Source of the DNA: Ktedonobacteraceae bacterium
Lineage (GTDB): Bacteria > Chloroflexota > Ktedonobacteria > Ktedonobacterales > Ktedonobacteraceae
NCBI GenBank assembly: GCA_035294325.1
Contig: DATGLE010000066.1
Location: 32,958-96,957 of the forward strand
Reading direction: 5' to 3'
DNA: 64,000 nt
The position numbers and the translations under genes are program-made. The notes under the pieces were generated by a model. That model was not told where the DNA came from. It saw only the letters and a program-made list of their open reading frames with translations, and did no database searches. This document shows, piece by piece, positions 2,968 to 62,175 of the stretch (position 1 is its first letter; each line of letters starts with the position of its first letter).

Positions 2968-3022
2968 TATAATTTGTGGTGGGAAAAATGCGCGAAGCGC
3001 ATTTTTCCCACCACAAATTATA
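2968..3022. repeat. 55-bp near-perfect palindrome (tataatttgtggtgggaaaaatgcgc-gaa-gcgcatttttcccaccacaaattata); structural sibling at 53008-53064
   Basis: Read directly from the sequence. Sits 50 bp downstream of the SDR gene stop and upstream of the atp promoter. Could act as a terminator or a protein-binding palindrome. Confidence 0.6.
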
Positions 3023-4863: not shown

Positions 4864-5017
4864 TAACACTGCTCCTCTCATTCGTAGTGCGTAGAGACGC
4901 CGCTCTTCATCCTCATCCTTTGCCAGTGTAAGTGAAGTAAGCCGGTCAGGGAGGAGAGACGATTTTGCTGCGTCTCCCACTACCATCAGAGGTCATGGCG
5001 CCAGTGAAGGCAGGGAC

Positions 5018-5100
5018 CAGCAGGCAGGGGCCAGCCCTGCCTCTACATGTGGAGATGGCGTCGATGAGGGCAGGGGCCAGCCCTGCCTCTACATGTGGAG
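5018..5100. repeat. two tandem copies of a REP-like GC-rich hairpin element (ggcaggggccagccctgcctctacatgtggagatgg) inside the atpE-atpF spacer
   Basis: Direct repeat visible at 5018-5055 and 5064-5100. Member of the dispersed ...ctctaca-hairpin family, also at 14418-14520, 29352-29490, 32745-32900 and 34090-34175. Confidence 0.7.
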
Positions 5101-5153
5101 ATGGAGCTTGCCTCCATCTTCATTGATGGGCGTCTTGAAAGGAGGGACCACCA

Positions 5154-5717
5154 ATGCACGAAGCAGTGCATACACTAATTATCGCCAGCGCGGCGCAGGG
5201 AGGAAGCGGAAGCATAGGCAGCGGACTCGGCATCAACGCCGTGGCCTTCATTTCTCAGCTTGTCAGCTTCGGCATCGTCTTTGTCCTGCTATGGAGATGG
5301 GGACTGCCCGCCATCACGCGAACTCTCGACAGGCGAGAGCGAGTGATCCGCGAGGGCATCGAGAACGCGGAACGCGCCAAACGTGATCTTGAAGAGGCCA
5401 ATCAGCGCGCCGAGCAAATTCTCGCCGATGCGCGCCGCCAGGCTCAGGAGACGGTAGAGCGTGCGTCGAAGGCCGCCCAGCAAGAAGCGAATCGCATACG
5501 GGAAGAGGCCCAGGCGCAGGCAGAACGCATCAGCCAGCAGCAGATTGCCCGCATCCAGCAAGAGGCCAACCGCGCACGCGCCGAACTGAGCCGCCTGGTT
5601 GTAAACCTCTCTATCGATGCCGCAAGCAGAGTCATTGGCAGATCGGTTGACAGCAAGGATAACCGCCGTCTGGTGGAAGAGTTTGTCACCACGAGTGACG
5701 GGGCGAGGAACAACTGA
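5154..5717 (+). CDS. atpF: F0F1 ATP synthase subunit b
   Basis: N-terminal TM helix followed by a long charged/Ala-rich coiled coil (AEQILADARRQAQETVERA...). Position in the operon. RBS AAAGGAGGGA. Confidence 0.85.
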   Translation: MHEAVHTLIIASAAQGGSGSIGSGLGINAVAFISQLVSFGIVFVLLWRWGLPAITRTLDRRERVIREGIENAERAKRDLEEANQRAEQILADARRQAQETVERASKAAQQEANRIREEAQAQAERISQQQIARIQQEANRARAELSRLVVNLSIDAASRVIGRSVDSKDNRRLVEEFVTTSDGARNN

Positions 5718-6506: not shown

Positions 6507-8105
6507 ATGGCATCTTGGGCTGATGAAATCAGCGCCATCATCGAGCAGAACATCGCAGGCTTCGGCGCGGATACCACCTCAACGGCCAGCGTCGGCACCG
6601 TGATCGCGGTGCAGGACGGCATCGCCCGCGTCTATGGCCTGCAAGATGTGAAGTATCTCGAACTGGTACACTTTCCTCGCACGGATCTGTACGGCCTGGC
6701 CTTTAACCTCGAAGAAGAGACGGTCAGTTGCCCGATCCTGGGCGAGTATTCCCATATTCGTGAAGATGATGAAGTGCGCACCACCGGACGTATCATCGAG
6801 GTGCCGGTAGGCGATGCCCTGCTGGGCCGCGTCGTCAATCCACTGGGCCAACCGCTGGATGACCGTGGGCCGATCAATACCGATAAGTTTCGCCCCGTCG
6901 AGCGCGTGGCCCCCGGCGTGATCTTGCGCCAGTCGGTGAATACGCCGGTGCAGACGGGCCTCAAGGCTATCGACAGCATGATCCCCATCGGACGCGGCCA
7001 GCGCGAACTCATCATCGGCGACCGCCAGACTGGCAAGACGGCCATTGCTATCGATACCATCATCAACCAGAAGGGGAAGGACCTCTTCTGCATCTACGTG
7101 GCTATCGGCCAGAAAAACTCTTCGGTGGCTCGCACGCAGGCCATTCTGGAGCAGTACGGCGCAATGGAATATACTACCATCGTCGTCGCCGGCGCCTCCG
7201 ACCCGGCTCCGCTGAAGTATCTCGCGCCATACGCCGGCTGTGCGATGGGCGAAGAGATTATGGAGTCAGGCCGCGACGCGCTTATCATCTACGACGACCT
7301 GACCAAGCACGCCGAAGCCTATCGCAATATCTCGCTGATTATTCGCCGCCCTCCCGGGCGCGAAGCCTATCCCGGCGATGTATTCTACCTGCATTCGCGC
7401 CTGCTGGAGCGCGCCGCGCGTATGAGCGACGATTACGGCGGCGGTTCGCTGACGGCCCTGCCGATCATCGAGACGAAGGCGAACGACATCTCGGCCTATA
7501 TTCCCACGAACGTTATCTCGATCACCGATGGGCAGATCTTCCTTGAGACCGACCTGTTCAACGCCGGTCAGCGTCCGGCCATGAACGTCGGCATCTCGGT
7601 CTCCCGCGTAGGCAGCAGCGCGCAGACCGCGGCCATGAAACAGGTCGCCGGGTCGCTGCGCCTCGATCTCTCGCAGTTCCGCGAACTCGCGGCTTTCGCG
7701 CAGTTCTCGTCCGATCTGGACCCGGCGACGCGTGCGCGTATTGATCGTGGCCGCCGCGTGACCGAAATTCTCAAGCAGCCGCAATACCAGCCCGTGCCGG
7801 TTGAGAAGCAGGTAATGATTATCTATGCAGCCACCAATGGCTACCTCGATGATGTTCCGCTTGAACTGGTGGGTGAGTGGGAATCGGCGCTCTATCGCTA
7901 TATGGACGCTAACCATCCAGAGATCGGTGAGGAGATTGTCGAGAAGTCGGTCAGAGCCAGAAACAAGATGAGTCCCGAACTGCTCCAGAACCTGCGCAAC
8001 GCCATCGAAGAGTTCAAGAAGACGGCCGAGCCACACGCTGAGGCACAGCCACAGAGCAGCGCAAGTCCTGAAGAGGCAGCCCGGACTGCCGCTCAGACAG
8101 CTTAA
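6507..8105 (+). CDS. atpA: F0F1 ATP synthase subunit alpha
   Basis: Walker A GDRQTGKT. Highly conserved alpha-subunit sequence throughout. RBS TAGGAGGAA. Confidence 0.97.
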
Positions 8106-8125
8106 AGGCAGCAGGAGGCAGGCTT

Positions 8126-9013
8126 ATGCCATCAACCCGCGAAATCCGGCGGCGTATCCGCTCGGTCAAAAATATGGCGCAGATCACCAAAGCTATGCAG
8201 ATGGTGGCAAGCAGCAAGATGCGCCGGGCGCAAGAACGAGTGCAGGAGGCTCGCCCCTACGCCGAGCAATTGCGCGGACTCGTCTCACGCCTCGCCCGAG
8301 CCTCGGAAGAGGATATCGGCAGCGAGGCGGTGCTGCTGGCCCAGCGTCCTGTGCGTAATATCGGGTATGTACTGCTCTCGCCAGATCGCGGACTCTGCGG
8401 CGCGCTGCCCAGTAATATCAATCGCCGGGCCGCAAGCAGCGCGCTGGAACAACAGCGCAAGGCAGCAGAGAACGGCGAGCGACCAGGAGTAGATTATATC
8501 GCTGTTGGTCGCAAGGGCCGCGATTTCATCGTGCGCACGCGCCAGCATCTGATCGCCGAATTCACGAACTATGGCGACAGGCCATCAATCACCGATGCCA
8601 GCGCTATCGCGCAGGTCGCCGTGGACGCCTTCGTGAAGGAGGAGGTCGATGTAGTCTACCTGGTGTACCCCAAATTTATTAACACGATGACGCAGCAGCC
8701 GGTAGTGGTGCAGCTTCTGCCCGTGCAGCCACCTGAGGGGGAAGGCCAGCCGGAGAAGATGGACTACATCTATGAGCCGGATCCCGCTCAGATCTTCCAG
8801 GCCCTGCTGCCACGCTACGTGGATGTGCAGGTATACCAGGCGCTTCTCGAAACCATCGCCAGCTTCTACTCGGCGCAGATGGTAGCGATGAAGAACGCAA
8901 CCGATAACGCGAACGAACTTATTCAGGACCTCACTTTGACATATAACAAGGCGCGCCAGGCTTCCATCACCACGCAGATCCTTGAGGTGGTGGCCGGCTC
9001 TCAGGCAACCTAG
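8126..9013 (+). CDS. atpG: F0F1 ATP synthase subunit gamma
   Basis: N-terminus IRRRIRSVKNMAQITKAMQMVASSKMRRAQ and C-terminus ITTQILEVVAGSQA are both canonical gamma. Confidence 0.95.
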   Translation: MPSTREIRRRIRSVKNMAQITKAMQMVASSKMRRAQERVQEARPYAEQLRGLVSRLARASEEDIGSEAVLLAQRPVRNIGYVLLSPDRGLCGALPSNINRRAASSALEQQRKAAENGERPGVDYIAVGRKGRDFIVRTRQHLIAEFTNYGDRPSITDASAIAQVAVDAFVKEEVDVVYLVYPKFINTMTQQPVVVQLLPVQPPEGEGQPEKMDYIYEPDPAQIFQALLPRYVDVQVYQALLETIASFYSAQMVAMKNATDNANELIQDLTLTYNKARQASITTQILEVVAGSQAT

Positions 9014-9210
9014 CGCGCTTGAGTTTTCGGGGATGCAGGGGGCGGCAGGCCCCCTCGGGGGGCGGCCGCCCCCTGGGCGGCGGTTGCCTCTCGCCAGGGC
9101 GACCGCAAGGGTCGCCCCTACATACACGCATCACAGGTATGACGGATATGGTAGAGGCGGGGCTGGCCTCCGCCCTCTCACCTGAATTCCCCTCCTTGAA
9201 GGAGAAATAG

Positions 9211-11100: not shown

Positions 11101-11142
11101 ATAAAAACCTGGCAGCAGTCGCACGACTGCTGCCAGGTTTTT
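11097..11142. terminator. bidirectional intrinsic terminator (14-bp GC stem cctggcagcagtcg/cgactgctgccagg, A-run upstream, T-run downstream)
   Basis: A perfect 14-bp stem with a 2-nt loop, flanked by aaataaaaa and ttttt. Lies between the convergent atpC (+) and TPM-domain gene (-). Confidence 0.85.
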
Positions 11143-11148
11143 ATGCAC

Positions 11149-14366: not shown

Positions 14367-14417
14367 CCACCGACCTGATCGGGGAATCAGTGATCCGGGA
14401 ATCAGTGACCCGGAAAT

Positions 14418-14520
14418 CAGAGACGGGGGCAAGCCCCGTCTCTACATCTCTATGACGCCAGGCGCCGGAAAAATGTAGAGACGGGGCTTGCCCCCGTCTC
14501 TACATCTCTAAGGTACCCCG
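14418..14520. repeat. pair of inverted REP-like hairpin elements (gagacgggggcaagccccgtctctacatctct ... tgtagagacggggcttgcccccgtctctacatctct)
   Basis: Two copies in opposite orientation about 25 bp apart, just downstream of gpmI. The arrangement resembles BIME. Confidence 0.75.
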
Positions 14521-14627
14521 TCTTCTGCGAAAAACCTGCCCTGATCGCGGGACATGTGAACACGCCTGTTTATCCACAAGCTGGCAGTAACTATGTGGAT
14601 AACTTTCGATGAATGTGGATAAACAGG

Positions 14628-15653
14628 CTAGCCGATGCGTTCTACCAGAGTGATCGGCACAACCAATATCGATCCGTCCTCAAGGTGAAGACGAACAGCA
14701 CGAGCGCGAATGCCAGAGGTAAAGCGCTGCTGGTAGGTAAAGAGGTAGTCGATGACGCCTATCGCTCCCTCGTGCTCACCGCCGCAGACGCGCACCTGCG
14801 CGCCAATGGTCGGCGTGGGATCGAGGATCGTTTCGCGGTGGTTGCTCTGCTTTTCTGACGCTGGCAGTGAGATCACCAGTTCGGGAAAGATCCCCTGACG
14901 CACGGAGGTGACGCCGGAGAGCAGCACGATTTCTCCCTGGTACTGGCTCAGCAGGTTCATGATACGCGCCGGCATGGCAGCCGTGCCCAGCCCTTCCGTC
15001 AGCAGCAGCGTCAACTGCGGCAGGTGATCCTGCATTTCCTCCACATCGCTGCTATCAATCAACTGCACAAGATCGACACGTAGAAAGCCCTCCAGGTCAC
15101 GAGCCGAGATACTGCTGGCAACGACTCCAGCGACACCCGAACTCAGAGCCTGGCGCAAAAGCGCGAAATTGAGCGGGCCGGGCACAACCAGGATAGCGCC
15201 GGGCGGGATCGACGCTATCCCCTGGCCGCTGGCCTGCCACATCGTGAGTACGCCGGCAACCTGATTGCCGGCCCCGATGGTCCCCTGAATCAGATCGGCC
15301 TGTCCCTCGATGATAACTCCTCCTCGCCCGGTAATATCCACGACGCGACCATGCATACCGGCGGGGACAACCTCAGGGCCACCCTTTGCGGAACTGGCTC
15401 CATTATGGACATCTTTCAGTTCCATTTTAGCCGTCGAAGAAATGCCAGGCAGTGAGAGCCGGGAGGGCATTTGAACGGCCTCCTGAGCTGGATCCGTGCC
15501 TTCGGGGCGTTCCAGCCGGAGCACAGGCTGATCGGGCAAAACTTCCTGGCCCGGATAGACCAGCGGCACAGCCTTTGTCTTAGGCCCACCCGGCCAGCGC
15601 TCTCTGCGCACCTGCGTATGTGTGATAACCGACCACCCGAGCGGATAGGTCAT
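14628..15653 (-). CDS. hypothetical protein with two KOW/SH3-like beta-barrel segments; last gene of the 19098-14628 minus-strand cluster
   Basis: 341 aa. Has the motifs GMHGRVVDITGRGGVIIEG and GAQVRVCGGEHEGAIGVIDYL (G-x-V-x-V-x-GG-x-G-x-G-x-V). No confident family assignment. Confidence 0.45.
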   Translation of the reverse strand: MTYPLGWSVITHTQVRRERWPGGPKTKAVPLVYPGQEVLPDQPVLRLERPEGTDPAQEAVQMPSRLSLPGISSTAKMELKDVHNGASSAKGGPEVVPAGMHGRVVDITGRGGVIIEGQADLIQGTIGAGNQVAGVLTMWQASGQGIASIPPGAILVVPGPLNFALLRQALSSGVAGVVASSISARDLEGFLRVDLVQLIDSSDVEEMQDHLPQLTLLLTEGLGTAAMPARIMNLLSQYQGEIVLLSGVTSVRQGIFPELVISLPASEKQSNHRETILDPTPTIGAQVRVCGGEHEGAIGVIDYLFTYQQRFTSGIRARAVRLHLEDGSILVVPITLVERIG

Positions 15654-15668
15654 AGCAACTGGCCCCCT

Positions 15669-17582
15669 TTACGATCCTAACGCCTGTGCCCATTGGAGCA
15701 GGCGGGCCTGGCGCTCTGTTTCATCGGTAGGAAGGGTCAGCGGCCTCCCACGGGCATCAATGACCAGCCCGACCAGGCCGCCATCGATCTGCTCGGCGGC
15801 GCGGGCGCGCTCGCCCGGGCCAAGCCCGACATCGACATCAGGCGCCGGGAAAAGCGTCAGCGCCGCCTGCTCGTTGGGCCGCAGAGGAATAACCTCGATA
15901 GAACCGGCCATCACTTCAACGTTTACCTGCCGTCCATTGCTATACTCAAGCCCGACGCGCAGCGCGAGTTGCCCCGGCTGCATGGCGCCAAAGGGGATGA
16001 CGCAGGTTCCCAGGCGATGCGATACGGCGTCATTTTCATTGACCTGCACAGCCGTGATTGGCGCGACTGTCGCCACAGCGCCAAGCTGACCCACAAGCAT
16101 AGCCTGATCCAGCGCCAGCGAAGTTACACCGCGCGGCTGGAGCGCGTCTAATAGCATAAGCATGACCTGCCCATACCTGGGCGTGTGCGCAAGAATACCA
16201 CCGGTAGCCAGGATCAGATCCGACATCTGCCATTGAGGGCTATTCTTCCTTGCCATCTCCATCGTTACGGCGATGGCTTCGCGCGCGAATGCCTGGCACA
16301 GTTCCAGCTCTCGCGGACTGGTGGGGATCACATGCGGGTGCAGCATACGATTGAGAACGAACTGGCGTACCTCTTCTTCGGTCACAGTGAATGGCAGCCA
16401 GCGCGCGATACGCTGCAACCCTACCCTTTGCAGGACGGCGCCCACGCCCGGCCCCACGCCCAGACCGGAATTGACGACAGGGATAAATTCGCCCTGTTCG
16501 CCCGCCAGCATGACCGTCGTCGTCGCCCCGCCAGCGTCCACGGCGGTGACGTTCATCGCGTAGTGCTGCGCCAGGAACCGCACCAGGCTGCTCAACGAAG
16601 TAGCGGTAGCGACAGGCGCCGCGCTCGACCATGAGCGGAGGCGATCATAGCCGGGAAGACGCTGCATGACCTCCCGCTCGTGCAGCGCACCAACACCTAT
16701 GCTGACCGGTCCAAGCTGCGCCGGCGAGACCAGGGCATCAACGCGGCTCACCTCGGCGACTCCCTGCAACAGACGCCGCACCGCCTCTACGTACTGGGGT
16801 GCCCCGGCATATAGCACCGGGCACTGCTGCGCGGCAATATCCTGGGGCGGCACCCCGGCAGAGGCGCTGGCCCTGCGCCGCTCGCTGAGTTCGCGTGACG
16901 CATTTATCAACATCTGGCACGCTTCCTGCAACGGAGTGGGACCCGCCGGCCCATCGGCCATGCCCACCATCAGCGCGGCCTGAGGCTGGAATTCGCGGAA
17001 GCGCCCCAACTGGCGCTCCCACTCCAGAGCCATACGCTCCTGGCTCCATGCGCCGCCGATACCAGGCGCGGAGGTGGGGCCGGCCATTGTCCCTGCCCCC
17101 ACAGAGACGGGGGACTGCGTGGTCGCGGCTATATATGCGGGAGACGGGATGGCCTGCATTTCAGCATATAAGCCGGATATGGCCTGCGCCACAAGCCTCT
17201 CAAGCTCCTGACTCACAGCACCCAGTACCGCCAGGCGCAGCGGGCCGCCGGCGCTGATCGTTGCGATAAACAGGTCCACACCGTCCCCGTCCGGCTGCTC
17301 AGGAGAGATGATACGCCCGTCGGCAACGAAACGACGACCAGTAATAAACTCTATGACATTGATTGCCTGGATAACGCCCGCAGTAATATCCTCCTGCGGA
17401 GGTGCTGTCGTTGTCGGCGCTTCCCCACGCGCCATCAGACGATACTGGCCCTCAACCAGTCCAAAGAGCGAGACCTTTGTAAATATGGTCCCACAATCAG
17501 CGACGAGGAGAGAGCTGGCAGGAGCCGGATTGCGACTCTGGCGCGGAACCTGCTCTCCCCCCGGGTAGGGTCGTGTACTCAT
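15669..17582 (-). CDS. actin-fold (ASKHA) ATPase-like protein, GlmL/MutL-family-like
   Basis: N-terminal LLVADCGTIFTKVSL resembles the DxGxT(F/Y)TKV phosphate-1 signature of GlmL-type actin-like proteins. There is a second Gly-rich ATGGILAHTP segment. Start set at the internal MSTRPYP Met to avoid a 74-bp overlap with the upstream gene. Confidence 0.45.
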   Translation of the reverse strand: MSTRPYPGGEQVPRQSRNPAPASSLLVADCGTIFTKVSLFGLVEGQYRLMARGEAPTTTAPPQEDITAGVIQAINVIEFITGRRFVADGRIISPEQPDGDGVDLFIATISAGGPLRLAVLGAVSQELERLVAQAISGLYAEMQAIPSPAYIAATTQSPVSVGAGTMAGPTSAPGIGGAWSQERMALEWERQLGRFREFQPQAALMVGMADGPAGPTPLQEACQMLINASRELSERRRASASAGVPPQDIAAQQCPVLYAGAPQYVEAVRRLLQGVAEVSRVDALVSPAQLGPVSIGVGALHEREVMQRLPGYDRLRSWSSAAPVATATSLSSLVRFLAQHYAMNVTAVDAGGATTTVMLAGEQGEFIPVVNSGLGVGPGVGAVLQRVGLQRIARWLPFTVTEEEVRQFVLNRMLHPHVIPTSPRELELCQAFAREAIAVTMEMARKNSPQWQMSDLILATGGILAHTPRYGQVMLMLLDALQPRGVTSLALDQAMLVGQLGAVATVAPITAVQVNENDAVSHRLGTCVIPFGAMQPGQLALRVGLEYSNGRQVNVEVMAGSIEVIPLRPNEQAALTLFPAPDVDVGLGPGERARAAEQIDGGLVGLVIDARGRPLTLPTDETERQARLLQWAQALGS

Positions 17583-20779: not shown

Positions 20780-21025
20780 ATAAAGAGAGTTCGTTGCTCA
20801 GCGTTTCTATCTCCCCTGCACAGTGCTGGCGCGATGAAGCCGTGCCAACGATGGATGAGAGTTATGTGGACAAATATACGACGAGCATTTGTCCACATAA
20901 CTCTCATCCATCGCGCGAGCGCCTGTGGCGCTCGCGCGATGATGCCGAAAACCGCTCTCTCTTAGAATTGAACAACTACCATCGAGAATGATCCATCCGT
21001 CAAAACAGGAGAAGGAAAGACAACC

Positions 21026-21505: not shown

Positions 21506-21837
21506 AAAAGATGAGAAGCGTCAGAGCCTCTCATCTACTAATGCAATTTAACGCGCCGGGCAAGTTTTCCTGACGGCTCACCGCTGCACGGTTCGCCAGG
21601 AGGGGGAGCCTGCGAGCACAGCGCCGCAGGTGCACTCTCAGGCGAGGAGCCTGCGGGCACAGCGCCGCAAACTCCCCCTCCTGGCGTGCCTGCGGCGCAC
21701 CCTCGGACGAGGAGTCTGCGGGCACAGCGCCTGCGGCGCTGTGCCCGCAGACTCCTCATAACAGGCGAGCCGCGCAGCGGTGAGCCGTCAGCGAAACATG
21801 CACATGGCGTTAAGATAATAATCCGAGCATAATGGAT

Positions 21838-22297: not shown

Positions 22298-22664
22298 CCC
22301 TTCTGAGACGCAGCCCTCTTCGTTGAGGCGTTCGTCATTATTTTACTACTAACACATACTTATACGTAACGGCCCGAGACGGTGTTGCATTGTTCAGTCA
22401 AACCTCCACAGTTCTCCTGACGCCTCCTGACGCTCACCGGCCACTCGCGCGTCTGCGCCACGCGCTGCAATGGTATAGTGTGATGAGGGAAGGCGCGGCG
22501 CGCCTTCCCTCATCACACTATACAGAAGGCGAGCGTTACAGGGGCGAGCAAGCGCGTGCGAGGGCATCAGCCACCAGGCACCCCTCAACAAGGAGATACG
22601 GGTTAGGTCATGGCTTGCTGCCACCCGTGAATACGGAATACAATCAGGCAGTACACGCGAAAGG

Positions 22665-28039: not shown

Positions 28040-28214
28040 ATGCCGCGACTTTTCAATGGCCCGGGAAAAGGCCAGGACGATTTAATGCTCGCCAGAAGCG
28101 GGGGTCAAGGGGGCGGCCGCCCCCTTGCGGAGCGCGGGGTGTCCCCGCCCAAACTCTTCCTTTCGGGCGTGGGGTGGGGAGAGTTAAATAGCCCTGGGAA
28201 AAGGCAGGTGCCTC
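28040..28214. repeat. ~170-bp dispersed GC-rich repeat element (gcgatttaatgctcgccagaagcgggggtcaagggggcggccgcccccttgcgg...atagccctgg), copy A
   Basis: Near-identical copy at 44150-44258. Partial module (gaaaaggccagggcgatttaaaagtcc) at 27913-27940. Ends immediately before a -35 hexamer. Confidence 0.7.
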
Positions 28215-29351: not shown

Positions 29352-29490
29352 AACAAATGTAGAGACGGGGCTTGCCCCCGTCTGCCTGGCACCCGCCTGC
29401 CTGGCACCCCGTCTGGAGGATGGCGGCTTCCCATCCAATGGCGGGGTATAAAGAGACGAGGGCAAGCCTCGTCTCTACATCTCTGAACGC
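29352..29490. repeat. REP-like hairpin elements (truncated direct copy plus inverted copy) downstream of DAHP synthase
   Basis: aaatgtagagacggggcttgcccccgtct ... gagacgagggcaagcctcgtctctacatctct. Same family as 14418-14520. Confidence 0.7.
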
Positions 29491-31239: not shown

Positions 31240-32744
31240 ACGAGAGGAAGGTATGTATGTCGTCTGACGGGAAGGAGCCGGGAGCCACATGGCAGGGGCC
31301 TGAGCAATCGGGCTGGCGCCGGTCTTTCGACCAGGAGGCGCAGGACGATCTACCAGCGCTCTCCGAGCAGCAGCGACAGGAAGAGGTGCTGCAATGGCAC
31401 ACCCCTGTGGCAGCGGAGGAGGACGAGCCGTATGCGGAGAGCGCAGAGGTAGCTTCGCCTCCCCCCGGCCTGCTGAGCCAGTTCAAGCAATATTTCACGC
31501 TCATGGTGGTGCCGCTGCTCTTCGGCGCACTTACCTGCCTGTTTGTCCTGCCGCTGGTGGCGACAGGACGCGCCCAGATCCCCTCGACGGGACTCTGGCT
31601 GGTAACGCTCGTCATTATTCTTATTGTGATAGCACAGGCCATCGCCATCTATTATGCTGGCGAGAATACCGGTCTGTGGGTGCTTACGACTGTGGGCGGC
31701 TTTTTCCTCTTCTTGCTGGTCGGCTGTTTTACCATCTTCGGCCTGACGCCGGGCATTACGCTTTTCGTGATCCTGGTCGCAATCTCCGTGGCTCTGGGTC
31801 GCCTCTACATCCGCTCCGTCCCCCAGGGCTACGTTGATCTCGTCTATACCTTTGGCAAGTACAGCCGCACCCTTTATCCCGGCTTCAACGTCCTTTTTCC
31901 CTGGGAAAAGGTGCGCCAGCACCTGCATGTGGAAGAAATACAATGGCTCTGCCCGGCGCAGAGGGTGCAGATGTCACGCGACGAGGACCTTATTCTGCGC
32001 GCGATCATCTCGTACCGCCTGCTCCCCGAAGATGCTCACCTGGCCGCGACCCAGGTTGACCACTGGGAAGAGCGCCTGCGCGAACTCTTCAAGACGGCCC
32101 TCCAGAGTATTGCCACGACCTTCACGCCCGACGATTTCATCCCCTGGCCGCATGGCCTGCATCAAGATACAACCGATACCACGCCGCGCTGGGAACGTGT
32201 GAATACCTACCTGCTCCACTATATGCAGGACCGCGTTGCGCTCTGGGGCGTGCAGATCAACCGGGTTCAGATACGCGATATCACGCTCGCTCCGCATGAT
32301 ACCTTTATGAGCGACACAGAACCGCTCAAGGAGCCGCCAATGCCGGATAGCAAGCCACCCTCACCCCCGGAGGTCTCCAGGCCCAGAGAACCCGAGCCGG
32401 TGCATCCGGTTCCTGCCCGTCAGCCCATGCCTGACAACGCCGTTCCGCCAGCCGAGCCGATCAAAGAAGAGGTGCTTATCAAGGCGTATAAAGAAGTGCA
32501 GAACGGCAATGTTACCGATCCCGAGACGATCCGCCGCCTGGCCCTGAAATTCGATGCCATTGCCAGAGATCCGCATGCCAGCCAGACCGTGAGCTTCGAT
32601 GCCGCGCGCGCCGCCCTTAACCTCTACCGTCAGGCCACCAGATACGAAGAGATATCCGGTGAGCAGGGCTTCCACGACGAGGCGACAAAGCCAGATTGGA
32701 GCATGCGCCGCGCCAGCGATGAAAACCTCATGGCCGGAGGATAA
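31236..32744 (+). CDS. SPFH/band-7 domain membrane protein with long disordered Pro-rich C-terminus
   Basis: Four TM helices, then an SPFH-like core (VDLVYTFGKYSRTLYPGFNVLFPWEKV ... QVDHWEERLRELFKTALQ). Start overlaps the PSP1 stop. The alternative start MSSDGKEP at 31257 is possible. Confidence 0.6.
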   Translation: MNERKVCMSSDGKEPGATWQGPEQSGWRRSFDQEAQDDLPALSEQQRQEEVLQWHTPVAAEEDEPYAESAEVASPPPGLLSQFKQYFTLMVVPLLFGALTCLFVLPLVATGRAQIPSTGLWLVTLVIILIVIAQAIAIYYAGENTGLWVLTTVGGFFLFLLVGCFTIFGLTPGITLFVILVAISVALGRLYIRSVPQGYVDLVYTFGKYSRTLYPGFNVLFPWEKVRQHLHVEEIQWLCPAQRVQMSRDEDLILRAIISYRLLPEDAHLAATQVDHWEERLRELFKTALQSIATTFTPDDFIPWPHGLHQDTTDTTPRWERVNTYLLHYMQDRVALWGVQINRVQIRDITLAPHDTFMSDTEPLKEPPMPDSKPPSPPEVSRPREPEPVHPVPARQPMPDNAVPPAEPIKEEVLIKAYKEVQNGNVTDPETIRRLALKFDAIARDPHASQTVSFDAARAALNLYRQATRYEEISGEQGFHDEATKPDWSMRRASDENLMAGG

Positions 32745-32900
32745 GAGGCAGGGTTTACCCCTGCCTCTACGTTCCTTGATGGCGAACGCCTCTGACCTGT
32801 AGAGATGGGGCTTGCCCCCATCTTCAGATCGATTGCGCTCCTGTTTCCACCAGCCCCCCACCTCGACCCGGAGAGATGGGGCTTGCCCCCATCTTCACAG
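32745..32900. repeat. three REP-like hairpin elements (ggcagggtttacccctgcctctac ; tagagatggggcttgcccccatcttca x2)
   Basis: Same hairpin family, with compensatory variation in the stems. Between convergent genes. Confidence 0.7.
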
Positions 32901-33986
32901 TTCCTCGATTAGCGGCACGATGGCCTCATTAGCCCCGGCATTCCAGCGCCGGTAAGCATTGACGGTTGCGGCCATCGTGTGCAGCTTCGCGCGATTAGCG
33001 AGCAGTTCTCCGAGCAGCGCAAACTGCTGCTCGGGCGCGCATGCAACCCATCCCAGCTTATGGCGCTGGATAAACTCCAGGTTTGCCTCTTCCTGGCCGG
33101 GAATCCAGGTCGTGGCGATAAATGGCTTGCCCAGCATCACTGCCTCAAAGAGCATGTTCGGCCCGGCTTTGCCCATAACTACATCAGAGGCCGCCATAAA
33201 AGGCGCAATCTCGGCGGTAAATGGCAGCGCATAGAGATTCTCCACACCCTGAAAGCGCGCCCATAAGCGACGATTTGTCCCCGTCGCCAGAATCACCTGT
33301 ACATCTCTGCCAGCAGCCAGCACCCGTTCCACCGTGCGGCTAAAACGGGCCGCGCCCTCCCCGCCCCCCTGCAAAAAAACCGTGAAGCGATCAGGAGAGA
33401 GGCCCAGCCCGGCGAGCGTCTGAGAGCGCTGCGCTTCGCTACAACGCGAGAACTGCCCGCGCACGGGCCAGCCGACGAGATGCAGCCGTTCGGGAGCGAT
33501 TCCGGAGGCGAGGGACTGCTCGTATGTCTCACGCGTGGGGACCAGTATGGCCGCCGCATGGCACTCGCTAAGCCAGGTCGCATGCACCTTGCCGGGATCG
33601 GCGAAAAGCGCCACAAACGGAACCTGTAGGCGTTCCCGCTTGAGTGCCTGCGTTACCTCATACGTAAGAAGCGGATAGGTAGTAATAATGAGATCGGGCC
33701 GCACACGTTGTAACAGGGAGACCAGCGAGCCACCGAGCAAGCGCGAAAAGGCGCGATGGGTGAGCAGCGCCGTCCTGGGCGTATCGCTCAGGCGGAATTC
33801 AGCCGACCAGAGCCAGAGCGCGTAGCGGCTCACCAGGCGATAGTGCAGGTGCAGGAAGTGCGGCTGCGGATCGACGATCTCAACATCGTGGATTGGCACG
33901 AGACGATCACGCAGAGCATGCGCCAGGCTGATATGGCCGCCGCCTGTGTAAGACGTGAGGATAAGAATGTTGCGTCGTTGCGCCAT
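32895..33986 (-). CDS. GT28-family glycosyltransferase, MGDG-synthase/UgtP-like diacylglycerol glycosyltransferase
   Basis: N-terminus ILILTSYTGGGHISLAHAL is the MGDG_synth motif. C-terminal GT-B domain. Confidence 0.75.
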   Translation of the reverse strand: MAQRRNILILTSYTGGGHISLAHALRDRLVPIHDVEIVDPQPHFLHLHYRLVSRYALWLWSAEFRLSDTPRTALLTHRAFSRLLGGSLVSLLQRVRPDLIITTYPLLTYEVTQALKRERLQVPFVALFADPGKVHATWLSECHAAAILVPTRETYEQSLASGIAPERLHLVGWPVRGQFSRCSEAQRSQTLAGLGLSPDRFTVFLQGGGEGAARFSRTVERVLAAGRDVQVILATGTNRRLWARFQGVENLYALPFTAEIAPFMAASDVVMGKAGPNMLFEAVMLGKPFIATTWIPGQEEANLEFIQRHKLGWVACAPEQQFALLGELLANRAKLHTMAATVNAYRRWNAGANEAIVPLIEEL

Positions 33987-34089: not shown

Positions 34090-34175
34090 CGAGAATGAGC
34101 ACAAGGCAGGGGCAAGCCCTGCCTCTACACACCCACCCTCACGAGGCGTAATGTAGAGACGAGGCTTGCCCTCGT
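34090..34175. repeat. REP-like hairpin pair (ggcaggggcaagccctgcctctaca ... aatgtagagacgaggcttgccctcgtct)
   Basis: Same family. Sits in the divergent/upstream region of the alpha/beta hydrolase gene. Confidence 0.7.
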
Positions 34176-34218
34176 CTGGTTACATTCATGACCAAACGTT
34201 TATTAACGGGAAGTTACT

Positions 34219-35665: not shown

Positions 35666-36020
35666 ATATCACAACCTCCTTATGATGCAACAAGGGTGAG
35701 ACCTTTTACGGTCCCGTTGATCTAAGCATAGCACGTTGTTGGCTTTTCGACAATGTTATAATCTTCATGACCATGGCTTTATAGTTTCTGGACATAGCCC
35801 CTGGTAGAAAGTTTGATTCTCAGCACTCTCGCTCGCTCTTCCCTGACACTCGCGCGGCTCCGCCGCGCAATAGAGTTTTTGAGTGGTGTGGGACAGGCGC
35901 TCCGCGCCTGTCCCACACCACTCAAAAACTAAGGCGAGCGCCGCAGGCGTGAGCAAGCGAGCAGTCCGGGGATCAGACATATTCTGACAACCACTGGAGA
36001 GTAAAGGATTTTTATTAGAT

Positions 36021-39474: not shown

Positions 39475-39748
39475 TTAACCCGATATGCACGTCCGGGGAC
39501 GCCGGCTACGGGTCCTCGATGGTGTGGTTTGTGGACACAATGCCAGCGGCGCTGTGTCCACAAACCACACAGGCGAACCGCTGCGCGGTTCGCCGTCAGC
39601 AAGACCTGCATAGTATTAGTTAACCCCATGTGCATGTTTTTGGGCGCCTGCGGCGCTGTGCCCGCAGGCTCTTCATCCTGGCGTGCGCCGCAGCGGTGAA
39701 CCATCAGCGAAACTTGCACATAGCATTAGTTAGAAGGCAGGGACCGGC

Positions 39749-44149: not shown

Positions 44150-44258
44150 AAGCGGCGCCAGGGCGATTTAATGCTCGCCAGAAGCGGGGGTCAAGGGGGC
44201 GGCAGCCCCCTTGCGGGGCGGGGGGTGGGGAGAATTACATAGCCCTGGAGCGGCGCTG
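44150..44258. repeat. ~170-bp dispersed repeat element, copy B (same family as 28040-28214)
   Basis: cgatttaatgctcgccagaagcgggggtcaagggggcggcagcccccttgcggggcgggggg...atagccctgg. Followed at 44266-44294 by TTGACA-17-TATACT. Confidence 0.7.
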
Positions 44259-44440: not shown

Positions 44441-44779
44441 ATGTTGAAAGAAGACGAGGAGAAGCCCGTTCCCACACCGCAGGCGGAAGAGGGTAGCAAG
44501 AGGGGAAGGACCATCCGCGCCAGGTATGGCGAAGACTACTTTCACCGCATCGGCACGAAGGGTGGCAACACGCTCAAGGAGAAACGGGGCAGCGAATATT
44601 ACCGCACGATTGCCGAGAAAGGCGGCAAAGCCAATATGAACAAGTACGGCCCAAGCCATTTTTCAGAAATGGGTAAGCGCGGCGGCAATACGACCCGAGA
44701 GCGCCAGGACGCCGACTTTTATCGGCGCATCGGGCAAAAGGGAGGAGAAGCGAGGCGTCGCAAAAAAGAAGGAAAATAG
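44441..44779 (+). CDS. KGG-repeat general stress protein (YciG/GsiB-like)
   Basis: Repeated Y-x-x-IG-x-KGG-x-x and EKRG-x-EYYR units. Highly basic. Confidence 0.6.
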   Translation: MLKEDEEKPVPTPQAEEGSKRGRTIRARYGEDYFHRIGTKGGNTLKEKRGSEYYRTIAEKGGKANMNKYGPSHFSEMGKRGGNTTRERQDADFYRRIGQKGGEARRRKKEGK

Positions 44780-44827
44780 AAGATGCTAAAGAAGCAGCGA
44801 GCTGCGCTCGCTGCTTCTTTAGCATCT

Positions 44828-45865
44828 TCACTGGACTTCTGCCTGTTGAGTTCCCAGTTTTGCCAGCCCTTCGGCGATGGCCGGAGCAACGCCCGTCTCC
44901 GCCGTCTGACGGGCCACGCGTAGAGCATTCTTGATCGCCTTCGCGTTCGAGCGGCCGTGCGCAACGATGGCCGAGCCGTTGATGCCCAGCAGTGGCAGCC
45001 CGCCATATTCAGCATAGTCCAGCCGTTTGAAAACTTTGCGCAGGCTGGGACGCAGCACAGCGGCGGCGAGCTTGTTAATGAGCGAGCCGGTCATCTCGGC
45101 GCGCATCAGTTCGAGAATGGTCTCGGCAAGTCCTTCACTGAGCTTGAGTACGACGTTGCCCAGGAAGCCATCGCAGACGACGACATCCGCGCTGCCCGCC
45201 GGAATATCGTGCCCCTCGACGTTACCAATAAAGTTCAGGCCAAGCGTTGCGGCGTTGGCTTTAAGAAGCTGATGCGTCTCTATCACCTGCTGGTTGCCTT
45301 TGCTCTCTTCCTCTCCGTTCGCCAGCAGGCCGATACGCGGAGCCTGCACATGAAAGAGTCGCTGCATGTAAATAGATCCCATGAGCGCGAACTGGAGCAG
45401 ATATTCGGGCTTGCAATCTGTGTTGGCACCCATATCGATGATGAGGCAGGGCTTGTCTTTGGTAGGAAAGACGAGGCCAAGCGCGGGGCGCTCAACGCCG
45501 GGAATACGCTTGAGCGTGAAGAGCGAGGCCGCCATCATAGCCCCGCTATTGCCCGCCGAGACCGCACCGACAGCAGCGCCATCGCGCACCTGCTGCAAGG
45601 CCAGGATCATCGAGGCGTTTTTCTTGCGGCGCACAGCATTGGCCGGATGCTCGTCCATCTCGATCACCTCGTCGGTGTGGATGATCGGTAGATCAAGCCC
45701 GGCGGTATCATGGCGCGCCAGTTCCGCGCGGATCACATCCTCGCGCCCGACGAGATAGACACCTATGCCATACTCGCGCGCGGCCTGGACGGCTCCCAGC
45801 ACAGTTTCGCCGGGAGCTTTATCGCCGCCCATCGCATCGAGAGCGACACGAATAGAGGCGCTCAT
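44828..45865 (-). CDS. plsX: phosphate acyltransferase PlsX
   Basis: N-terminus IRVALDAMGGDKAP is the PlsX signature. Confidence 0.9.
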   Translation of the reverse strand: MSASIRVALDAMGGDKAPGETVLGAVQAAREYGIGVYLVGREDVIRAELARHDTAGLDLPIIHTDEVIEMDEHPANAVRRKKNASMILALQQVRDGAAVGAVSAGNSGAMMAASLFTLKRIPGVERPALGLVFPTKDKPCLIIDMGANTDCKPEYLLQFALMGSIYMQRLFHVQAPRIGLLANGEEESKGNQQVIETHQLLKANAATLGLNFIGNVEGHDIPAGSADVVVCDGFLGNVVLKLSEGLAETILELMRAEMTGSLINKLAAAVLRPSLRKVFKRLDYAEYGGLPLLGINGSAIVAHGRSNAKAIKNALRVARQTAETGVAPAIAEGLAKLGTQQAEVQ

Positions 45866-46236: not shown

Positions 46237-46773
46237 ATTACCAGCATTCCCCTCATCTAAAAAGGTGCCGGGGCCACGCCCCTGAAAGTATGCCTATCCT
46301 CGGCGCCTTCCCTCGCGCGCGGCTTCGCCGCACCGGGGATATGGTTTATATGGCAAGACAATGGGCGAAGCGCATTGTCTTGCCATATAAACCATATACA
46401 GCGAGCGCCGCAGGCGCGAGCAGTGATTGGGGCAGCGATCAGGCACACTCTGACAACCCCGATCTTCAAAATGATACAAGCCTATTATAGCATTATGCCA
46501 CACAGAATGTACGGCGAAAAAGGCAGCTCAGGCTCAGAGATAGGACCATAAGGGCTTGACAAGCCCTCATGTTTGTACTACTGTACAGCCGAAGCCGCCG
46601 TTTAGTACAAATATTCAGGGCTGTCGCGCGGCGGAGCCGCGCATGGAATGGAGAGTGTGATACGGAAGGCTGTGCGAAGCGCAACCTTCCGTATCACACT
46701 CTCCATAGAGCAAGCGCCGCAGGCGCGAGCACGCGATGAGATCGGAAATCAGACAACCCATCAGGAAAGAATC

Positions 46774-50833: not shown

Positions 50834-51031
50834 CCGCGCGATAATGAAGATTAAGATAGTCAATGTAACTCTTCAAACCCCTTTGCCACCTCCAGCGGCT
50901 TGTTCGGGAAGAGTGGGTGTATGGGGGACGGGCGGCGTCCGCCCTCCATACACTCACTCTTCCCCTTGCGCGGCGTCGGAGGCGCCGCGCAAGGGGAAGA
51001 GGGGACTCGAATAGTTACCAATCAAGATCTG

Positions 51032-52748: not shown

Positions 52749-53007
52749 GTTATCTTTCCCCCTTTGCTATCTTCCACCCATCGATAGGATAGGTTCCTGG
52801 CATAACAGCCGGAAATACTATACTCGATTTTTGCCGGTGATGTGTTAAAAAGTTATTAAAAATCATTGGAAGATATAAATATTCTGTTGCACAGGAATTT
52901 ACACAAGAAATGTGTCATACTTTGTTTATGCCGCCATGAAGTGTGGCAAATCTTGCAGTACTTGCTTCCCAGCGCCAGCGCTTGCGAGTACCTGCGGCGC
53001 TCACCTT

Positions 53008-53064
53008 TATAATTTGTTTTATGAGAAAATGCGCTGTACGCATTTTCTCATAAAACAAATTATA
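53008..53064. repeat. 57-bp palindrome (tataatttgttttatgagaaaatgcg-ctgta-cgcattttctcataaaacaaattata), sibling of 2968-3022
   Basis: Shares the outer arms (tataatttgt ... acaaattata) and the inner aaaatgcg/cgcatttt with copy 1. The middle stem differs, but the difference is compensatory. Confidence 0.6.
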
Positions 53065-53182
53065 AGCAATATACAACAGAAAGAGTGAGATGCGCATGGT
53101 TTCGGAGCGATTGACCGGACGCCCGCGTCGTGCTATCATAACTCAACATAGCTCAATGTAGATTCGTAATGGCAGAAGTTCT

Positions 53183-57986: not shown

Positions 57987-58080
57987 GATGTGCCCGGTTT
58001 TAAATATCAGTGGTGAAACTGTTGACAAACCGCCAAAGCTATGATATCTTAGTAACGCAAACCGGATATGACAGTTTAAG

Positions 58081-58155
58081 CGGGAGTGGCTCAGTGGTAG
58101 AGCGCTTCCTTGCCAAGGAAGATGTCGCGGGTTCGAATCCCGTCTCCCGCTCCAT
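58081..58155 (+). tRNA. tRNA-Gly (GCC)
   Basis: Cloverleaf readable directly: acceptor gcgggag/ctcccgc, anticodon loop ttGCCaa, T-loop ggttcgaatcc, encoded CCA. Confidence 0.9.
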
Positions 58156-58168
58156 TGCCCCATTCAAG

Positions 58169-58242
58169 GCGACGTAGCCAAGTGGTAAGGCACGGCTCTG
58201 CAAAAGCTGCACCAGCGGTTCGAATCCGCTCGTCGCCTCCAG
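58169..58242 (+). tRNA. tRNA-Cys (GCA)
   Basis: Acceptor ggcgacg/cgtcgcc, anticodon loop ctGCAaa, T-loop ggttcgaatcc, encoded CCA. Confidence 0.9.
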
Positions 58243-62089: not shown

Positions 62090-62175
62090 GGGCCGGCCTT
62101 GTGCCGGCCCCTACGGTAGCACCGACCAGGCTGCCGCGAATCGGACCACTGTAGGGGCCGGCCTTGTGCCGGCCC
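62090..62175. repeat. two copies of a 21-bp self-complementary hairpin (gggccggccttgtgccggccc) flanked by inverted ctac/gtag, 40 bp upstream of hisD
   Basis: Copies at 62090-62110 and 62155-62175. Intervening 44 nt. Read directly. Confidence 0.7.

Follow-up and report, generated by a model that had tools for sequence, protein, structure and literature searches.

GTAG-tagged REP hairpins, mostly in inverted doublets, form a dispersed family in Ktedonobacteria DNA

Introduction

What kind of element is the GC-rich hairpin that recurs between the genes of this DNA, and how does it spread and persist? REPs and REPINs are best known from Proteobacteria. The GTAG-tagged REP superfamily, defined by Di Nocera, De Gregorio and Rocco in 2013, comprises palindromic stem-loops of 20-40 bp with a stem of 5-13 bp and a loop of 2-20 nt; head-to-head dimers predominate, heterodimers occur, and unidirectional or convergent spacers are preferred (PMC3733652). 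Thermomicrobium roseum GTAG-23 is the only Chloroflexi example in that survey (PMC3733652). The founding REPIN is the GI REP of Pseudomonas fluorescens SBW25, which comes with a RAYT of its own (PMC3116915, PMC2817692).

The window (the whole 64,000-nt stretch of DNA analysed here, from an uncultured soil Ktedonobacteraceae bacterium) was originally predicted to carry a dispersed REP/BIME-like hairpin family at five loci. Its host was placed by gene content: AtpD shares a 90%-identity cluster with a protein of a 'Ktedonobacteraceae bacterium' MAG and is 89% identical to AtpD of Ktedonosporobacter rubrisoli, and the gene order near the atp operon and gpmI is as in K. rubrisoli. Several soil metagenomes contain contigs near-identical to the window. 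In this study, the anatomy, placement and turnover of the hairpin family are described, and the explanations for it are weighed.

Materials and methods

The window was searched with the pattern GTAGAGRYNNNGCTTGCCNNNRYCT, with up to two mismatches allowed, and with a covariance model that was built from 44 distinct variants and run with filters off. Metagenomes were scanned with the full pattern, in which four stem positions were free and four half-free; the 115 loci recovered were reduced to 108 distinct REP sites. The pattern used to scan the genome collection was one C shorter than the window element and matched the sister family of Acidobacteriaceae described below. RAYT genes were sought by six-frame regular expressions for the HUH and Y motifs, by tblastn with an acidobacterial RAYT (locus L091), and in the Pfam lists of neighbouring genes.

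Results

Anatomy and copies of the element

The repeat is a GC-rich hairpin of 25-33 nt with a GTAG tag, present in about 15 copies in the 64-kb window. It has the form 5'-(T)GTAGAG-[8-10 bp stem]-CTTGC-[stem']-3', with the own-strand consensus 5'-(T)GTAGAG-RY-NNNG-CTTGC-CNNN-RY-CT-3'. The pattern search returned 12 matches in the window, against 0.03 in dinucleotide-preserving shuffles, and the covariance model returned 15-16 elements at seven intergenic sites. The latter set consists of the eleven copies known from the original prediction, the copy at 5095-5119, the pair 9097-9121/9151-9175, and a GTAG-GGGCCGGC-CTTGT pair at 62090-62175. The copies are as follows.

5003..5021, minus strand: degenerate half-REP (arm plus loop, GGCAGGGACCAGC), adjoining the copy at 5022-5046
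5022..5046, minus strand: REP with stem GC-AGGG and loop CTGGC (GTAGAGGCAGGGCTGGCCCCTGCCT), between atpE and atpF
5068..5092, minus strand: REP of the subtype with stem GC-AGGG and loop CTGGC, head-to-head with 5095-5119
5095..5119, plus strand: REP with tag GTGG and stem AT-GGAG (GTGGAGATGGAGCTTGCCTCCATCT), ending 35 nt before the atpF start
9097..9121, minus strand: REP with a distinct stem (GTAG-GGGCGACC-CTTGC-GGTCGCCC), in the atpG-atpD spacer
9151..9175, plus strand: REP GTAGAGGCGGGGCTGGCCTCCGCCC, in the atpG-atpD spacer; the relative L244 has this subtype in the orthologous spacer
14421..14445, minus strand: REP master copy (GTAGAGACGGGGCTTGCCCCCGTCT), 52 nt past the gpmI stop
14475..14503, plus strand: 'double-foot' REP with a 14-bp stem (palindrome 14473-14505, ATGTAGAGACGGGG-CTTGC-CCCCGTCTCTACAT), partner of 14421-14445
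29359..29383, plus strand: REP master copy, 8 nt past the DAHP synthase stop, tail-to-tail with 29454-29478
29454..29478, minus strand: REP with stem AC-GAGG
32746..32770, minus strand: REP with stem GC-AGGG and loop GTAAA; the hairpin 32744-32768 begins at the last base of the SPFH stop codon
32799..32823, plus strand: REP with stem AT-GGGG
32870..32894, plus strand: REP with degenerate tag GGAG, abutting the stop of the convergent glycosyltransferase gene (32895-33986, minus strand)
34104..34128, minus strand: REP with stem GC-AGGG, in a divergent spacer
34153..34177, plus strand: REP with stem AC-GAGG, head-to-head with 34104-34128
62090..62114, minus strand: second copy of the related GTAG subfamily of 62151-62175, a weak model match (E=0.8) with a perfect 8 bp hairpin and a CTAC foot
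62151..62175, plus strand: REP of the related GTAG subfamily (GTAG-GGGCCGGC-CTTGT-GCCGGCCC), just upstream of the histidinol dehydrogenase gene

The seven sites and the genes around them are as follows.

5022-5119: atpE to atpF, co-directional, within the atp operon
9097-9175: atpG to atpD, co-directional, within the atp operon
14421-14503: gpmI facing an unknown ORF, convergent
29359-29478: DAHP synthase to ANTAR response regulator, co-directional
32746-32894: SPFH gene facing glycosyltransferase, convergent
34104-34177: glycosyltransferase and hydrolase pointing away from each other, divergent
62090-62175: upstream of histidinol dehydrogenase, co-directional

The element is present at all five loci first named. 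The list was incomplete in that it lacked the atpG-atpD pair at 9097-9121(-)/9151-9175(+), and the two copies given for 5018-5100 are three (5018-5120), the third being the GTGG-tagged copy at 5095-5119. In the window, the tag is GTAG in 14 of 16 copies, GTGG in one and GGAG in one. The GT[AG]G tag always lies 5' on the strand whose loop reads CTTGC (variants CTGGC and GTAAA), so that the element is asymmetric. Window copies have stems of 7-14 bp and a 5-nt loop, in keeping with the short stem-loop that characterises the GTAG superfamily. About one third of the 44 perfect window hairpins with a stem of at least 7 bp and a loop of 4-6 nt belong to the family.

The folding energy of single units is -15 to -18 kcal/mol as RNA and about -9 as DNA; with the double-foot copy included, the RNA range is -15 to -25 kcal/mol. 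That copy (14473-14505) is tagged on both sides (TGTAGAG...CTCTACA), and its stem is 14 bp long, with a folding energy of -25 kcal/mol; 'double-foot' is the term of Quentin et al. for a REP of this kind (PMC6006769). The copies cluster in the 5-35 kb region and at 62 kb of the window, and a further 19 kb of flank is without copies. Outside the window, the repeat was recovered from 55 distinct Ktedonobacteria-like metagenome loci. Extrapolated from the 15-16 copies at seven sites counted within 64 kb and 19 kb of flank, the genome-wide copy number would be high. At gathering score and at E<=1, Rfam had no family for the REPs, and a doublet gave a spurious match to a miRNA hairpin, below threshold. 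In the window, only two adjacent tRNA genes, at 58080-58151 and 58168-58238, match Rfam at gathering score.

Inverted pairs

Inverted pairs predominate, as originally predicted, but their spacing differs from the 20-50 bp proposed: five of the six clear window pairs are head-to-head, with tags facing and 0-29 nt apart, and the pair 29359/29454 is tail-to-tail, 70 nt apart. In Ktedonobacteria-like metagenome loci, 26 pairs are head-to-head, 3 tail-to-tail and 16 head-to-tail, and the commonest head-to-head spacer is 2 nt. The like-stem pairs 14419-14505 and 29359-29478 each form one long hairpin (z = -9 to -13). As RNA, the former folds at -68 and -80 kcal/mol on the two strands and the latter at -84.5 kcal/mol. 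Both are inverted doublets foldable as a single long hairpin, which is one of the features of REPIN-RAYT systems (PMC3116915). Doublets of unlike stems yield two separate hairpins, and four of the six window pairs combine unlike stem types. No shared linker motif was found between paired REPs, whose spacers are short or variable.

Pairing and stem variation

All stem variants quoted in the original prediction occur in the window and are fully complementary. Among the 44 unique variants, 94.9% of cells were paired, compared with 79.3% in column shuffles and 45-60% when the partner column was slid. Double-sided changes were seen at 7 of 8 stem pairs, in 58 cells against 14.9 expected. Despite the free positions in the search pattern, nearly all metagenome matches are fully complementary, and they represent more than 12 distinct stems. 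This stem-preserving covariation is strong evidence of a constraint on pairing, and it is compatible with action as RNA or as single-stranded DNA. The asymmetry between G.U and A.C mismatches, which bears on RNA versus DNA selection, was not significant (14 vs 9).

One caveat bears on the proposal that selection acts on the hairpin rather than on its sequence. Whole inner stems have been swapped between strains with identical flanks; at least part of the 'compensatory' pattern thus reflects copying or recombination among subfamilies, and not stepwise mutation.

Genomic placement

By tetranucleotide profile, 51 of the metagenome loci are Ktedonobacteria-like and 39 Acidobacteria-like; 16 of these 39 have long blastn matches, mostly at 75-86% identity, to Acidobacteriaceae MAG loci. 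The Ktedonobacteria-like loci came from Centralia soil samples. REP location is almost wholly extragenic, and most of the 14 calls that fell within genes reflect ORFs whose start was over-extended, or read-through at their ends. From crude in-house GC3-based ORF calls, 23 spacers among the 108 distinct metagenome loci were typed as convergent, 40 as co-directional and 6 as divergent, which corresponds to enrichment of convergent spacers (33% vs 19% background, p=0.006) and depletion of divergent ones (9% vs 20-27% background, p=0.02 to 0.0003). Of the two outcomes that would have refuted the original prediction, a lack of enrichment at gene 3' ends and a lack of covariation, neither was observed. 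Copies in co-directional spacers are closer to the stop codon of the upstream gene. No bias was seen in orientation relative to transcription (18 same vs 15 opposite).

In the window, copies do lie just 3' of gpmI, the DAHP synthase gene and the SPFH gene, as had been described; the rule does not extend to every locus, since 34104-34177 is divergent and lies at 5' ends, and two further loci lie inside the ATP synthase operon. In one metagenome contig (L217), two intergenic blocks of 1.4-1.9 kb (1563-2669 and 7163-8261) hold 14 REPs and flank a 1283-aa gene, an arrangement that resembles the 'large block' of T. roseum GTAG-23.

Turnover between strains and relatives

Six strain contigs, 99.6-99.9% identical to the window, differ from it mainly at repeats. 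Two of them (L124 and L125) are without one 46-nt REP unit at 5023-5068, and another (L126) has one REP after gpmI where the window has two (14419-14505). Further pairs of strains differ by changes in tandem units, by deletions between REP arms, or by a whole inner stem that has been replaced between identical flanks. None of the strain differences compared shows a clean insertion or excision footprint, and all can be explained by slippage or recombination between repeats. At a greater distance, the atp operon of the sister species L242, at 92% nucleotide identity, is free of REPs, where the window has five; in the relative L244 (77%), the atpG-atpD spacer carries the subtype found there in the window; and the K. 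rubrisoli region compared has none.

Tandem duplications of one arm plus loop (e.g. GGCAGGGGCAA-GGCAGGGGCAAGCCCTGCC) were observed at 5003-5021 of the window and in metagenome contigs L152 (~1590-1620), L198 (~420-470) and L209 (~5150-5240). Because they recur at independent loci, slippage at the hairpin is their likely origin. The first REP of the gpmI site is preceded by a 15-bp tandem repeat, ccgggaatcagtgat, that continues into it (14380-14424); the window has three units and strain L126 (11600-11790) about twelve.

Transposase search

Neither the window with 10 kb on each side of it nor ~0.9 Mb of REP-bearing metagenome loci yielded a Y1/HUH transposase ORF, and in the same sampled DNA no RAYT was found beside REPs of the GTAGAGAC type. 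Viral contigs and plasmids had no copy of the GTAG REP. An Acidobacteriaceae MAG carries a RAYT/TIRYT-like Y1 transposase gene (L091, 7095-7765). It is flanked by GGGGTGCCCCACTCATTCGC-type inverted repeats, which differ from the GTAG REPs described here, and small palindromic insertions interrupt its reading frame.

Comparison with known systems

The family shares with the GTAG superfamily the GTAG stem-loop, head-to-head dimers, heterodimers, the spacer preference and occasional read-through at ORF ends. At the level of sequence, all the features tested fit that superfamily. The survey covered no Ktedonobacteria, and the host class here differs (PMC3733652). T. roseum GTAG-23, compared by its description only, is clustered in a few large blocks, whereas the copies here are dispersed.

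The P. fluorescens GI REP and the present family have in common the core GGGGCTTGCCCC(C) with a 5' GT[AG]G, and GI REP GTGGGAGGGGGCTTGCCCCCGAT has nearly the same core as GTAGAGACGGGGCTTGCCCCCGTCT. Both systems form inverted doublets that fold into one long hairpin, and both exist as a within-genome 'population' of variants. The present family differs in its phylum, in a 5-nt loop with an extra C and in a mode spacer of 2 nt; moreover, GI REP has a cognate RAYT, and none was found in the DNA sampled here. The E. coli REP/BIME system (Y, Z1, Z2; TnpA-REP structure 4ER8, PMC3479197) resembles the present family in intra-operonic as well as 3' locations, in a GTAG guide at the foot of the hairpin and, apparently, in the alternating orientation of two REP types within a cluster. 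In E. coli, the stems are longer and bulged, and defined linkers bind IHF or gyrase; no such linkers were seen here.

Acidobacteriaceae and Terriglobales MAGs (L001-L120) carry an abundant sister REP, GTAGAGACGCGGCTTGCCGCGTCT, which also occurs with GGGG/CCCC stems and has a 4-nt loop. Tag, outer stem (AGAC/GTCT) and loop core are the same as here. This REP belongs to another phylum, is mostly one C shorter, which makes it a perfect palindrome, and is mostly found in tail-to-tail pairs or as singletons. No published description of it was found in the REP literature cited here.

Discussion

The dispersed REP/BIME-like family that had been predicted is borne out by its tag, inverted pairs, extragenic placement and covariation. 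We regard it as a GTAG-tagged REP family, mostly in inverted doublets of the REPIN/BIME-like kind and presumably mobilised by a RAYT, and give this reading a probability of about 0.65. The units would be non-autonomous DNA elements: a RAYT whose gene lies elsewhere in the genome would copy them in the form of single-stranded DNA hairpins. Such an enzyme, a REP-associated tyrosine transposase of the Y1/HUH type, would recognise the GTAG tag together with the shape of the hairpin, and for that reason tag, loop and pairing would be kept while the stem letters vary. As no RAYT was found in the DNA sampled, mobilisation by one is argued from analogy. Slippage or recombination between repeats is the likely process behind the changes in copy number and stem. 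Copies would survive at sites where their presence costs little, 3' of genes and in operons, with selection probably behind the placement bias. Where transcribed, the units should form very stable RNA hairpins (-15 to -25 kcal/mol; doublets -68 to -84 kcal/mol), which probably act, in a secondary role, as 3'-exonuclease barriers or pause sites for the upstream message.

The main competitor, which we consider unlikely, is that a RAYT once spread the family and has since been lost, so that the REPs are orphans that change only by slippage, unequal recombination and gene conversion. The result of the transposase search agrees with this, as do the strain polymorphisms, all of which are changes in unit number, direct-repeat deletions or arm swaps, and the partial duplications of arm plus loop, which are typical of hairpin slippage; genomes with REPs but without tnpA-REP are also known (PMC3733652, PMC6006769). 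However, the window lineage has gained the atpE-atpF REP cluster since its split from the 92%-identical relative, and identical master copies lie at unrelated sites, both of which argue for recent dispersal beyond slippage alone. The atpG-atpD pair, too, is absent from the 92% relative, but as the 77% relative shares the subtype, loss would explain this equally well. The sampled DNA, moreover, amounts to ~1 Mb of a genome type that probably has 8-11 Mb.

It is quite improbable that the hairpins are immobile RNA elements kept by host selection for their structure, as 3' stabilisers or U-less 'I-shaped' terminators. Their enrichment downstream of genes, at 0-55 nt from the stop in several cases, would suit such a role, as would the very stable RNA hairpins with covarying pairs and the two clusters after atpE and atpG in the ATP synthase operon, where differential mRNA stability would be useful. 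Against it, the asymmetric GTAG tag and the loop have no obvious RNA role and are a hallmark of RAYT substrates, both orientations to transcription occur at 18 same vs 15 opposite, and one window locus and 6 of 69 metagenome loci lie in divergent (promoter) spacers. The elements are also dispensable, because orthologous spacers in a close relative are without them. The terminator role put forward in the original prediction is not supported in the canonical sense: the sequences 3' of the stems (CTACATCTC, TCAGATCG, GGTTACAT and similar) contain no T-run, and a terminator scan flagged none of the REPs in the sense of the upstream gene. Hairpins without a U-tract are not classical intrinsic terminators, and this identity was rejected; canonical A-tract/T-tract palindromes do exist elsewhere in the window. 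Repeated double-stranded binding sites for a host protein (operators, nucleoid or gyrase sites) are hardly credible. E. coli BIMEs do bind IHF, gyrase and Pol I (PMC6006769), and the elements here are likewise palindromic and intergenic, but duplex sites would keep their stem letters. Here, the letters vary freely while complementarity is kept, which points to an extruded single-stranded hairpin. The anatomy likewise led us to reject CRISPR, attC and operator identities, since spacer arrays are absent and the stems differ in sequence yet remain paired.

As a GTAG-tagged REP family, the repeat is new for the Ktedonobacteria lineage and is otherwise an ordinary case of the well-known REP/REPIN kind. 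It extends the host range of GTAG REPs to large-genome, actinomycete-like Chloroflexota, which are absent from the published REP surveys compared. The exact 25-mer GTAGAGACGGGGCTTGCCCCCGTCT also occurs in contigs 80-86% identical to Acidobacteriaceae MAG loci, which tentatively suggests that one REP sequence is common to two soil phyla, through inter-phylum transfer of REP/RAYT or through a conserved RAYT 'recognition code' on GT[AG]G plus GGGGCTTGCCCC. This idea is possible, though we lean against it, and it includes the case that the family spreads in Ktedonobacteria without a dedicated RAYT. The shared 25-mer makes the family a test case for the crossing of phyla by REP/RAYT. Between strains at 99.7% identity, REP sites form the main hotspots of indels and could therefore serve as strain-typing markers for soil metagenomes. 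In annotation, REP hairpins account for ORFs that are spuriously extended and for small ORFs called at the ends of genes.

Other repeats and sites in the window

A long-range hairpin lies just 3' of atpE at 4877-4992 (GTAGTGCGTAGAGACGC...(about 60 nt)...GCGTCTCCCACTAC). It is kept in 4 of 4 Ktedonobacteria compared, with an invariant GAGACG/CGTCTC core. Its stem is REP-like and its outer pairs covary, with double changes at 8 of 32 pairs; it may be a processing or stability element of the atp mRNA.

Perfect palindromes other than REPs, with stems of 14-27 bp, occur at 2968-3022, 11101-11144, 20909-20941, 21709-21757, 22473-22523, 35874-35930, 44779-44829, 50957-51001 and 53007-53065. Several of these very long palindromes have a GC-rich centre between an A-run and a T-run, as if a longer inverted repeat enclosed a bidirectional intrinsic terminator. 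Another family of GC-rich hairpin repeats, (C)AGGGGGCGGC(A/C)GCCCCCT(TG), was found at 9028-9061, 28071-28141 and 44157-44227; the two 71-nt copies are 94% identical, and the AGGGGGCGGC family is also present in the atpG-atpD spacer of L242, the sister species without GTAG REPs. More dispersed GC-rich repeats (GCGCCTGCGGCGCTGTGCCCGCAG; GAGCGCCGCAGGCGCGAGCA) lie at 21588-21812, 39540-39728, 46396-46735 and 35929-35959. Strains L121 and L122 have an indel of ~100 bp relative to the window at 21629-21729.

Between gpmI and the convergent ORF 14628-15653, three perfect DnaA-box motifs (TTATCCACA) lie within 53 nt, at 14570-14578(+), 14594-14602(-) and 14614-14622(-). The window has 4 perfect DnaA boxes, against 0.23 expected. 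The trio may be a DnaA-titrating or regulatory site, and its three-box arrangement is kept 3' of gpmI in K. rubrisoli (L245, about 17300-17345).
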